From the sequence record PV700625: DNA of 64,000 nucleotides, one strand, 5' to 3'. Source of the stretch: Escherichia phage MET-P1-301. This document shows, in pieces, positions 43,005 to 44,800 of this stretch. The notes under the pieces were generated by a model. It worked only from the letters and a program-made list of their open reading frames with translations, made no database searches and was not told the origin of the DNA. Every line of letters begins with the position of its first letter. Within the stretch, counting starts at the first letter, position 1. The position numbers and the translations under genes are program-made.

Positions 43005-43391
43005 CATAGAAAATTTGGTGAGTATACTGAGCAGCATAAACCAACGGGTACTCACCAGCATCACTTAAGAGTCTTTGAAAAGGGTTTTAAGTGATGTTGG
43101 GCGAGGCTCGGTGAGGTGGGGTAAGGCATAGTGCGGTGCTGTTTGGTATGGGTAGTTAGTCTCAGCTACATTAAAATGAGACTTACCTTTTAAAAGGTCT
43201 TTAAACAGGGTCTTTTAATAAGGTTGTGTGATGTGATGTATGGTGCTGTGGAGTTTGGTTAGGTCCGGTCAGGTATGGTATGGTGATGTGAGGTATGGGT
43301 GGATGGTAGTAGCCACGTTAAAAATCTACCAAGTTTCTAAAGAGTCTTCTGTTGAGGGTTCTTTACAAACAACTTAACAATCAACTAAAGT
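43005..43391. repeat. Intergenic G/T-rich low-complexity tracts enclosing an ~80-bp conserved unit (copy 1 at 43146-43226)
   Basis: GGT-rich runs flank GGTATGGGTAGTTAGTCTCAGCTACATTAAAATGAGACTTACCTTTTAAAAGGTCTTTAA-CAGGGTCTTTTAATAAGGT, which recurs at 44550-44630. Confidence 0.6.
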
Positions 43392-43994
43392 GTGGAGCTA
43401 AATGCTATGAAACTGTTAAATATCAAAATCACTGGTACTCGCCCTTTCTTGAGCCATAACGATACGCTGTCAGACCCATTAAACCCTCTGACAAAATATC
43501 ACAAGTCTCTGTCCAGTAAACGTAAAAAGACTGACGAAGATTATGCGCTCTTAGCAGAAAGCCAACTGGTAACTTCTTGTTACTACGATGAGCAGCTAGG
43601 TTTTGTTATGAACGGTGAGATGATTGAGGCTTGTATCAAATCTGGTGCGAAACTCAACAAACTTGGTAAGGTAATTGACCGAGCCATTATGCTGACAGAT
43701 GTAGTCTTCCCAATGACTATCAAGAACTGTCCAGCAAACCCACAAGAACTTGCTAAGAATCCAGACTTTATCTATGCTAAGTCTGTTAAGATTGGTACAG
43801 CACGAGTTATGAGCTACCGTCCAATCTTCCGTGACTGGTCTGTAGAGTTCGGTTTGATGTTCGATGAAGAGCAAATCACCAAAGAAGAACTCTTGATGGT
43901 TCTGGAAAATGCTGGTAACCTTTGTGGTGTAGGTGATTGGCGTCCACGCTTTGGTCGTTTTTCTGTAGAAGTTATTTCAGAAGGTAACGTTTAA
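43392..43994 (+). CDS. hypothetical protein (200 aa) inside repeat-bracketed cassette
   Basis: ORF; no motif recognised. Confidence 0.45.
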
Positions 43995-43996
43995 TT

Positions 43997-44437
43997 ATGA
44001 ATACAAAAGCATTAGCAGCAAAGTTTAGTTACGGTGACACTGTATCACACTCTGAGATGGATACCTTCTTAGGTATTGTGAAGCCAACTTATCAAGGTGA
44101 CATTGTTAAGTACGAAGATGAAATGAAGGCTTATGCACTTACACGTCTAAACCGACTTGAGAAGTTTATTGAGAAGCTTCTTAAAGAAGAGAAGATTTAT
44201 CTGGTTGCTTCAATGGGTGTTGGTTATCGTGTGGTTGAACCTAAGCATCAAGCAACTATTGCAAAACGTAAAATGTCTGGTAAGATTGGTCGTGCTTTAA
44301 AGCAAGCCACCCAAGCAATTGAGAATGTGAATACTATGGCACTTAGTCATCAAGAACGTTCACGACTGATTGAACAGCAAAACCATTTAGCTGCTATGAA
44401 AGCTAACATTAACAAGCAACGCAGAAAACCTTTCTAA
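43997..44437 (+). CDS. hypothetical protein (146 aa) inside repeat-bracketed cassette
   Basis: ORF; basic C-terminus. Confidence 0.45.
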   Translation: MNTKALAAKFSYGDTVSHSEMDTFLGIVKPTYQGDIVKYEDEMKAYALTRLNRLEKFIEKLLKEEKIYLVASMGVGYRVVEPKHQATIAKRKMSGKIGRALKQATQAIENVNTMALSHQERSRLIEQQNHLAAMKANINKQRRKPF

Positions 44438-44446
44438 GTTGACTAG

Positions 44447-44472
44447 GTAGCCTCTTCGGAGGCTCCTTTTTA
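44447..44472 (+). terminator. Intrinsic terminator
   Basis: AGCCTCttcgGAGGCT (UUCG tetraloop) followed by CCTTTTT. Confidence 0.7.
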
Positions 44473-44475
44473 AAA

Positions 44476-44800
44476 GGTCTTTAAGAGGGTCTTTTAATAA
44501 GGTGGGGTGGGGTGTGGTGAGGTTTGGTTTGGTGTAGTCAGGTAAGGTATGGGTAGTTAGTCTCAGCTACATTAAAATGAGACTTACCTTTTAAAAGGTC
44601 TTTAAGAGGGTCTTTTAATAAGGTGCTGTATGGTGGGGTAAGGTAGGGTTAGGCGAGGTCAGGTGAGGTTTGGTATGGAAGGATGGCAGTAGCCTTATAA
44701 AAATCTGCCAAATAAGCTATAAAATCTGTTGACAAGTCAGGTGTTATAGCTTATTTTTATACCCAATGTAATACAAAATTTAATATAACTTTGAGGTCAT
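44476..44800. repeat. Second copy of the G/T-rich tracts plus ~80-bp conserved unit (44550-44630), followed by a promoter-like TTGACA
   Basis: Same unit as 43146-43226 with a partial third copy at 44468-44505; TTGACA-N17-TATTTT precedes the next gene. Confidence 0.6.

Follow-up and report, generated by a model that had tools for sequence, protein, structure and literature searches.

Positions 43001 to 44709 of the 64,000-nt stretch that we analyzed (the window; one strand of Escherichia phage MET-P1-301, record PV700625) hold two small adjacent genes with two arrays of pentamer repeats on either side. The source genome is a Felixounavirus, that is, Felix O1-like (best record ~95% identical over 20 kb). 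The original prediction, made from the letters alone, described this region as a two-gene cassette between ~80-bp direct repeats, with open reading frames (ORFs) of no recognizable function. With high confidence, we identify this region as a VIPR (Viral Interference Programmable Repeat) locus of type II, with which this phage most likely silences a satellite element of E. coli by the proposed four-step mechanism set out below. Its parts are the small phage protein Vipr, the helper protein vap1 and four guide RNAs (vrRNAs) built of GGY-NN pentamers. In a genome record, the locus would still appear only under hypothetical proteins and "DR" repeats.

The two proteins and the four arrays

VIPR loci comprise a minimal RAMP-like Vipr, an accessory vap, and flanking vrRNAs made of 9-16 YNNGG repeats and a structured tail; in SUSP1-infected cells, four vrRNAs of ~100 nt are found and co-purify with Vipr (bioRxiv 10.64898/2026.04.26.720920; 10.64898/2026.04.26.720927). 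According to the same preprints, Vipr protomers assemble, one on each repeat, into a helical filament in which GGY is sequestered and the NN pairs are presented; these pairs read double-stranded DNA with one base skipped per unit, and the resulting "R-loop triplex" represses transcription in competing mobile elements.

We found that the product of ORF1 matched PDB chain 36pp_D, "SUSP1 Vipr protein", over its full length (PDB sequence search; E = 6e-128, 191/195 identical). The gene vipr (43407-43994, + strand) encodes this 195-aa RAMP-like RNA-guided DNA-binding effector. Its start is most likely the ATG at 43407, rather than the GTG at 43392 that had been proposed, since the N-terminus of the solved protein and the 588-nt coding sequence annotated in relatives agree on it. 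Thirteen of the 14 RNA/DNA-contact residues listed in the preprint are present (H17, K33, R39, E71, M72, K82, G87, K88, R138, C173, D177, W178 and R179), while the 14th, given as "T175" in the preprint, is V in the window Vipr and in the PDB chain alike. The protein is 100% identical to that of wV8, and with 98% identity to SUSP1 Vipr it belongs to the SUSP1 clade, defined by >90% protein identity. ORF2, which begins 3 nt after vipr (43997-44437, + strand), encodes the 146-aa VIPR accessory protein vap1 (145/146 identical to SUSP1 vap1), which enhances protection by SUSP1 VIPR (bioRxiv 10.64898/2026.04.26.720920; 10.64898/2026.04.26.720927). The claim that the two ORFs have no recognizable function did not hold. 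Pfam gave nothing for either ORF, and PHROGs gave only the 'unknown function' families 4652 and 5926.

In a tblastn search, Vipr was found in 131 phage records, comprising 117 Felix O1-like and 14 distant ones. The distant homologues (23-44% identity) come from Gordonia, Pseudomonas (LESphi2), Mycobacterium and Listonella phiHSIC phages and are all annotated as hypothetical; the similarity to phiHSIC was already remarked in an old wV8 annotation. We also note that GenBank GU169904.1, 'Staphylococcus phage SA1' (147 kb), carries a vipr-vap 97.5% identical to the locus of E. coli and Salmonella phages, which suggests that this record is chimeric or contaminated.

Around the two genes lie four 5-nt-periodic arrays of GGY+NN, with 10-15 pentamers each, on the + strand only; neither strand of the 64 kb has any others. 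Without exception, the 46 core units show G at position 2 and a pyrimidine at position 3, and 36/46 are strictly GGY. Each array module consists of a linker hairpin, then the guide tract, then a pseudoknotted tail of 33-34 nt, and the tails are of three types: A (vrRNA1 and vrRNA3, identical), B (vrRNA2) and C (vrRNA4). The predicted vrRNAs (tract plus tail) are 84-109 nt long.

The near-identical ~80-bp repeats that had been reported to flank the ORFs are indeed present (43145-43224 vs. 44546-44624; 78 identical positions, 1 mismatch, 1 indel), as are the hairpin AGTCTCA/TGAGACT and the palindrome ACCTTTTAAAAGGT within them. A 38-nt core of the repeat (GGGTAG...TTACC) occurs exactly twice in the 64 kb, compared to 0 copies expected by chance. 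Since the tracts alternate with tails and linkers, each ~80-bp repeat is one type A tail plus one linker hairpin. Thus, the repeats are constant 3' tails and linkers of guide RNAs and were wrongly suspected of regulating or insulating the two-gene unit. Likewise, the G/T-rich tracts, which had been described as low in complexity, are strictly 5-nt-periodic and form the informative guide part of the RNAs.

The upstream features, all on the + strand, begin with a sigma-70-type promoter, TTGACA-16-TATACT (43001-43028; 11/12 consensus matches), which is invariant in SUSP1 and in vipr-less relatives and stands before the vrRNA1-vrRNA2-vipr-vap1 unit. It is followed by leader/linker hairpin 1 (43055-43100; CAUCACUUAAGAG...UUUUAAGUGAUG; -26.3 kcal/mol, z = -6.5), the 3' arm of which forms the first two pseudo-units of vrRNA1. 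The vrRNA1 guide tract (43090-43149) has 12 pentamers, including 10 core GGY/NN units from 43100 (NN = GA TG GA TC GA GG AA AT GC GC TT AT), and its type A tail (43150-43183) has the pseudoknot GUAG/CUAC and the hairpin AGUCUCA/UGAGACU. Linker hairpin 2, found by folding (43186-43223; CCUUUUAAAAGGUCUU...GGGUCUUUUAAUAAGG), holds the palindrome. The vrRNA2 guide tract (43222-43296) has 15 units (NN = TG GA GA AT GC GG TT TA CC CA AT AT GA GA AT) and a type B tail (43297-43330) with the pseudoknot GUGG/CCAC and the hairpin GGUAG/CUACC. Folding placed a further linker-like hairpin (43333-43370) between this tail and the vipr ribosome-binding site (GGAG, 43395-43398).

Downstream of vap1, also on the + strand, a hairpin (44449-44464) and U tract resembling an intrinsic terminator (44449-44473) are identical in SUSP1, wV8 and Moogle; the U tract overlaps linker hairpin 3 (44465-44502, by folding). 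The vrRNA3 guide tract (44501-44550) has 10 units (NN = GG GG GT GA TT TT GT CA AA AT) and, by sequence identity, the same type A tail as vrRNA1 (44551-44584). Linker hairpin 4, again found by folding (44587-44623), is followed by the vrRNA4 guide tract (44622-44676; 11 units, NN = GC AT GG AA AG TA GA CA GA TT AT) and a type C tail (44677-44709; pseudoknot AAGG/CCUU, hairpin GGCAG/CUGCC). A motif match identified a promoter-like site, TTGACA-17-TATTTT (44729-44757, + strand), that belongs to the following gene (ORF 44802-45185); this site lies outside VIPR and sets its downstream limit. Thus, both the terminator said to precede the downstream repeat and the TTGACA site said to follow it were correctly located.

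The linker hairpins come in two outer-stem versions (CCUUUUAAAAGG.../...CUUUUAAUAAGG and CAUCACUUAAGAG.../...UUUUAAGUGAUG) around a common GUCUU...AGGGU core. On the other side of the VIPR promoter, toward the ligase gene, there is a 64-aa Lys/Arg-rich ORF (42810-43004; phrog_5428, unknown function). This ORF is variable: it is present in LF110P1 and missing from EC106, and humlepung has a different small hydrophobic ORF instead. Many BLAST matches to relatives start only at window position 42983.

Repeat code, RNA tails and predicted satellite targets

We examined the repeat code across 45 distinct vrRNAs (570 units) and found that position 2 is G in 99% of units (1.88 bits) and position 3 is a pyrimidine in 100% (1.51 bits), while the NN positions carry 0.09 bits each and are thus hypervariable. 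The tract parser recovered the published layout of SUSP1, with one vrRNA upstream and three downstream (1+3), and gave 2+2 for the window, 2+3 for Moogle, 1+2 for Mushroom and 2+1 for Barry. The guides are shuffled as modules between phages: the vrRNA1 and vrRNA2 guides (43090-43296) are common to Barry (1198-1405 of the compared stretch) with one nucleotide differing, the vrRNA2 guide is nearly identical to a PK6 guide (1251-1325 of the compared stretch; three nucleotides differing), and the downstream guides are wholly different, resembling spacer exchange. Taken whole, the 265-nt downstream array had no match above 90% identity in any phage record.

A single 34-column register fits all tail types, with the pseudoknot pairing columns 3-6 with 17-20 and the hairpin pairing columns 9-15 with 28-34. 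The pseudoknot occurs as GUAG/CUAC, GUGG/CCAC or AAGG/CCUU, and the hairpin as AGUCUCA/UGAGACU, AAUCGGA/UUCGAUU, GGUAG/CUACC, GGCAG/CUGCC or GUCG/CGAC. Among 11 distinct tails, 90.8% of cells were paired (slid controls, 27-42%) and 9/11 pairs showed two-sided change; the pseudoknot helix was 100% paired with compensatory changes in 3/4 pairs, and the hairpin had compensatory changes in 6/7 pairs. This covariation of pseudoknot and hairpin bears out the suggestion in the original prediction that the repeats are structured noncoding RNA elements.

Natural guides of the SUSP1 clade converge on an E. coli satellite phage, and SUSP1 VIPR can be programmed to repress double-stranded DNA targets, as shown with GFP reporters and by targeting lambda cro/cI (bioRxiv 10.64898/2026.04.26.720920; 10.64898/2026.04.26.720927). 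When we searched E. coli genomes with the locus, an unannotated tract-plus-tail match was found in 152 chromosomes, and related islands of ~11 kb are present in 486/5,426 complete E. coli genomes. These islands contain a large serine recombinase gene, baseplate and tape-measure genes, small hypothetical genes and often a methyltransferase gene; they are inserted at wrbA/ymdF, tonB/yciI and yecD/yecN and are often broken by IS elements. In one of the compared E. coli stretches (L011), the island spans 9835-20861. Where an island has a detected guide, this is one vrRNA that has a terminator of its own and a type-B-like tail, and the annotation of these islands lists no vipr gene. Since the preprint defines its satellite by homologues of the SUSP1 tape-measure and baseplate-hub proteins (bioRxiv VIPR preprints, 2026), the sampled ~11-kb island appears, from its gene content, to be the same element.

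We compared 40 unique guides from 11 phage loci to 12 satellite islands, counting a guide as passing if at least 80% of its NN bases matched. With one base skipped per unit, 30/40 guides passed, compared to 3, 3 and 1 at skips of 0, 2 and 3, and the mean best match was 0.83 at skip 1 vs. 0.70. Thus, the published 1-nt skip rule, which was shown in vitro and in vivo for SUSP1 (bioRxiv 10.64898/2026.04.26.720920; 10.64898/2026.04.26.720927), is independently replicated.

Three of the four window guides scored above all shuffled-guide nulls and all other skip rules, in each case with the skipped base on codon position 3 (wobble). The vrRNA2 guide matches the satellite serine recombinase gene at 25/30 (0.83; null mean 19.6, maximum 23; other skips at most 19), and a BLAST search with its ideal target found the site in 120 genomes at ~91% identity. 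The vrRNA1 guide has its site in the C-terminal part of the recombinase gene, with 20/24 NN bases matching (0.83; null mean 16.9, maximum 19), and the vrRNA4 guide matches a 128-aa satellite gene at 20/22 (0.91; null mean 16.05, maximum 18). Within the 64-kb window there are no self-targets, the best skip-1 matches of the four guides being 0.63-0.70. The first two satellite loci held no convincing match for the window guides, and the matches came after ten further islands. Ideal-target BLAST gave no variant better than the sampled sites for vrRNA2 and vrRNA3; vrRNA4 was improved by the same approach.

We also examined the guides encoded by the satellites themselves, which show no targeting of the phage window. 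For guides of two satellites (loci L012 and L019), a match of 0.88-0.92 with skip 1 lies in an intergenic region close to the end of a further satellite (L016, ~19161), in agreement with the remark in the preprint that satellites target each other. Values of 0.96-1.00 at skip 3 for satellite guides may reflect a homologous vrRNA gene of the same 5-nt period.

The anatomy, homology, repeat code, tail covariation, skip-1 target matches, lack of self-targets and presence/absence polymorphism of the locus are established here. We infer that the behavior of SUSP1 carries over to this phage and that the satellite is the natural target; the manner in which the RNAs would be matured is likewise inferred. 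The promoter at 43001 would drive a transcript that presumably carries vrRNA1, vrRNA2, vipr and vap1 together, and vrRNA3 and vrRNA4 would arise by read-through of the 44449 hairpin, which is identical in SUSP1, where downstream vrRNAs are detected. Each vrRNA would present 10-15 GGY-NN pentamers capped by the 34-nt pseudoknotted tail, along which Vipr protomers would polymerize, one per pentamer, burying GGY and exposing NN. The NN pairs would then base-pair with double-stranded DNA read as xNNxNN..., with one skipped base per unit, usually at the codon wobble position, and the Vipr-vrRNA filament on the DNA would block transcription. The guides are predicted to aim at the ~11-kb satellite: vrRNA1 and vrRNA2 at the serine recombinase gene, vrRNA4 at the 128-aa gene and vrRNA3 possibly at the tape-measure gene. 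The phage most likely uses the locus for silencing a parasitic satellite element in E. coli, presumably expressing and using all four guides and profiting from the silencing of the satellite integrase and the small gene; the most likely benefit is protection against a parasite that makes use of the tail parts of the phage.

Relatives without vipr and the orphan arrays

Comparison of related phages, which had been proposed as a check for cassette polymorphism, showed that the locus is polymorphic. The repeats themselves are not duplicated promoters. We found vipr-vap in 117 phage records at 95-98% nucleotide identity, while in 112 records without it only ~280-610 bp separate the ligase gene from the gene that follows the array. 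The three vipr-less phages that we inspected (EC106, LF110P1 and humlepung) do not have an empty site; each has retained the promoter and the leader hairpin together with one or two vrRNAs, whose tails are A and then C, or C alone. These orphan tracts lie, in coordinates of the compared stretches, at 715-784 in EC106, at 893-977 and 1050-1104 in LF110P1, and at 866-925 and 999-1053 in humlepung. A tblastn search found no vipr elsewhere in the 112 records, the orphan-array phages included. The first guide of humlepung is that of Barry vr1 and differs by one nucleotide from window vrRNA1, and 3/5 orphan guides match the satellite specifically at skip 1 (0.82-0.88).

The vipr-less arrangement is what recombination between the two repeats of the window would leave. 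Thus, the idea of a recombination-mobilized cassette was partly right: the presence/absence polymorphism (117 vs. 112 records) and junctions that fit recombination between the repeats speak for it. We put forward, tentatively and as less likely than not, that guide arrays may live apart from vipr, a proposal with three joined parts. Orphan guides could be loaded in trans onto the Vipr of a co-infecting phage, as weapons that would be borrowed or as decoys that would draw off the Vipr of a rival. Type II arrays could take their maturation signal from the conserved linker hairpin that stands ahead of each tract; in the preprint text and supplementary text that were searched, we found no mention of linker hairpins, orphan arrays or type II vrRNA maturation. 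Furthermore, recombination at the two ~80-bp repeats would move a phage from the 'armed' to the 'orphan' state or back.

Alternative readings and comparison with known systems

Several observations weigh against reading the locus as a satellite-silencing VIPR system. The evidence for expression and binding comes from SUSP1, and peer review is still pending for the two preprints behind the mechanism (bioRxiv 10.64898/2026.04.26.720920; 10.64898/2026.04.26.720927). The best site of vrRNA3, in the satellite tape-measure gene (16/20, 0.80), equals the null maximum and puts the skipped base on codon position 1; this target is unproven and borderline because of its score and its wrong codon phase. 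The best natural matches are 83-91% and not perfect, in a sample of 13/486 island-bearing E. coli genomes. Only 9/15 units of vrRNA2 are strictly GGY, the rest being TGT or AGT, and some of them may bind Vipr less well because G1 is a contacted base. In addition, vrRNA3 and vrRNA4 sit behind the terminator-like hairpin, and a fold search with vap1 (Foldseek against PDB) gave no significant match (best E 0.23, weak winged-helix hits); the single-sequence AlphaFold model of vap1 has a pLDDT of 68.

We considered that the tracts might instead be a cis-regulatory leader, in which period-5 GGU repeats bind a TRAP-like ring or a cooperative or autoregulating single-strand-binding protein that controls translation or termination of the ORFs. 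Period-5 triplets that are each followed by a hairpin do resemble the TRAP operator, the 5' leader of ORF1, behind a strong promoter, contains two of the tracts, and there is a weak Rfam match to 'DUF2815 RNA', a motif upstream of phage genes. However, two tracts lie after the ORFs, vipr-less phages keep their tracts, and the NN strings match satellite genes under the skip-1 rule only. Moreover, the NN bases are hypervariable between phages with 97-100% identical proteins, which fits a guide and not an operator. The Rfam match, of both tail A copies to RF03084 in a permissive scan (E 0.18-4.5), was dropped with scores of 20.3 and 18.1 bits, far under the gathering threshold of 41.2, and ORF1 lacks a DUF2815 domain; at gathering thresholds, Rfam gave nothing in the whole window. 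We therefore regard a cis-regulatory leader as very improbable. We give still less credence to a DNA-level element, such as iterons, an R-loop or G-quadruplex replication origin, or a Chi-like recombination signal: the locus does sit among DNA ligase, DNA polymerase and nucleotide-metabolism genes, with strong strand asymmetry and G-runs, but iterons and origins keep their repeat sequence, whereas here only GGY is kept and the number of arrays varies from 1 to 5. Furthermore, no exact Chi sequence is present at the locus, and transcription of the homologous tracts in SUSP1 yields discrete small RNAs, which co-purify with Vipr. The TRAP-like operator, single-strand-binding protein autoregulation, origin, R-loop, G-quadruplex and Chi-like candidates were dropped after the PDB match, the NN variability and the target tests.

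A different question is whether the locus is a decaying or non-functional VIPR remnant that is heading to the vipr-less state of the 112 relatives. Frequent loss of vipr-vap among relatives, the presence of degenerate TGT and AGT units, and target matches that are imperfect (80-91%) would all be expected of one. Degenerate units, however, are described as common in functional vrRNAs (2026 VIPR preprints), and all four guides score best under skip 1. A remnant is unlikely, and in our judgment improbable, because both ORFs are intact (98-100% identical to functional or widespread alleles) and the promoter, tails and linkers are intact and conserved as well. CRISPR-Cas was also rejected as an identity: the repeat analysis of 42000-46000 showed no repeat-spacer array, and the locus has two small genes only. 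Thus, we favor a functional type II VIPR locus.

Since VIPR was first described in the 2026 preprints, both by one group, this locus is a rediscovery; the kind of system is already known from the two bioRxiv preprints and PDB 36pp, and our extras are minor. For this instance, they are the 2+2 array, the downstream guide pair and three predicted satellite targets, and on the side the orphan arrays and linker hairpins, which pose small questions on guide maturation and sharing. The phage thereby gains an annotation with four guide coordinates and three credible satellite targets, together with evidence for gain and loss by repeat recombination. The wider interest lies in VIPR as a recently reported kind of RNA-guided DNA recognition, which combines a non-contiguous code of two bases in five with an R-loop triplex and has been proposed as the ancestor of the CRISPR RAMP proteins. 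Its defining features could be derived anew, and independently, from public genomes, and the locus was picked out from raw sequence alone; together these two points back the published claims and indicate that such a scan can surface systems of this kind.

Among known RNAs and RNA-protein systems, the 'DUF2815 RNA' of RF03084 has GGGUAG, a hairpin and UUAAAAGG in common with tail A; in contrast, the 3' half of the model is a ribosome-binding site and AUG that tail A lacks, and there is no DUF2815 gene here. In the TRAP-trp leader complex, 11 G/UAG triplets ~5 nt apart wrap round a protein ring with one subunit per repeat. VIPR resembles it in its period-5 RNA triplets and one protein subunit per repeat, but differs in having a helical filament, informative spacer dinucleotides and a DNA target in trans, and no terminator/antiterminator switch.

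The closest relative is the type II VIPR of SUSP1, which shares the GGY/NN pentamer form of the guides, Vipr (98% identical) and vap1 (99% identical), and likewise lies between the DNA ligase gene and the early gene that follows it. It also has the same promoter, post-vap1 terminator hairpin, linker hairpins and tail types A, B and C, and its target is the same E. coli satellite family. In contrast, the layout is 1+3 in SUSP1 and 2+2 here, all four guide sequences differ, and SUSP1 is a Suspvirus while the window phage is a Felixounavirus. A more distant likeness, drawn in the preprints, is to the Cas7-family RAMP filaments of Class 1 CRISPR-Cas, in which, likewise, a protein with an RRM, G-loop and thumb polymerizes on its guide RNA, bases are flipped out by the thumb at regular intervals, and the variable guide is capped by a constant structured handle. 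VIPR, in contrast, lacks a CRISPR array, a Cas1/Cas2 adaptation module and a nuclease, and it needs no protospacer-adjacent motif (PAM). Moreover, its guide is non-contiguous, with 2/5 RNA bases pairing with 2/3 DNA bases, and VIPR is encoded by phage and silences its target instead of cutting it.

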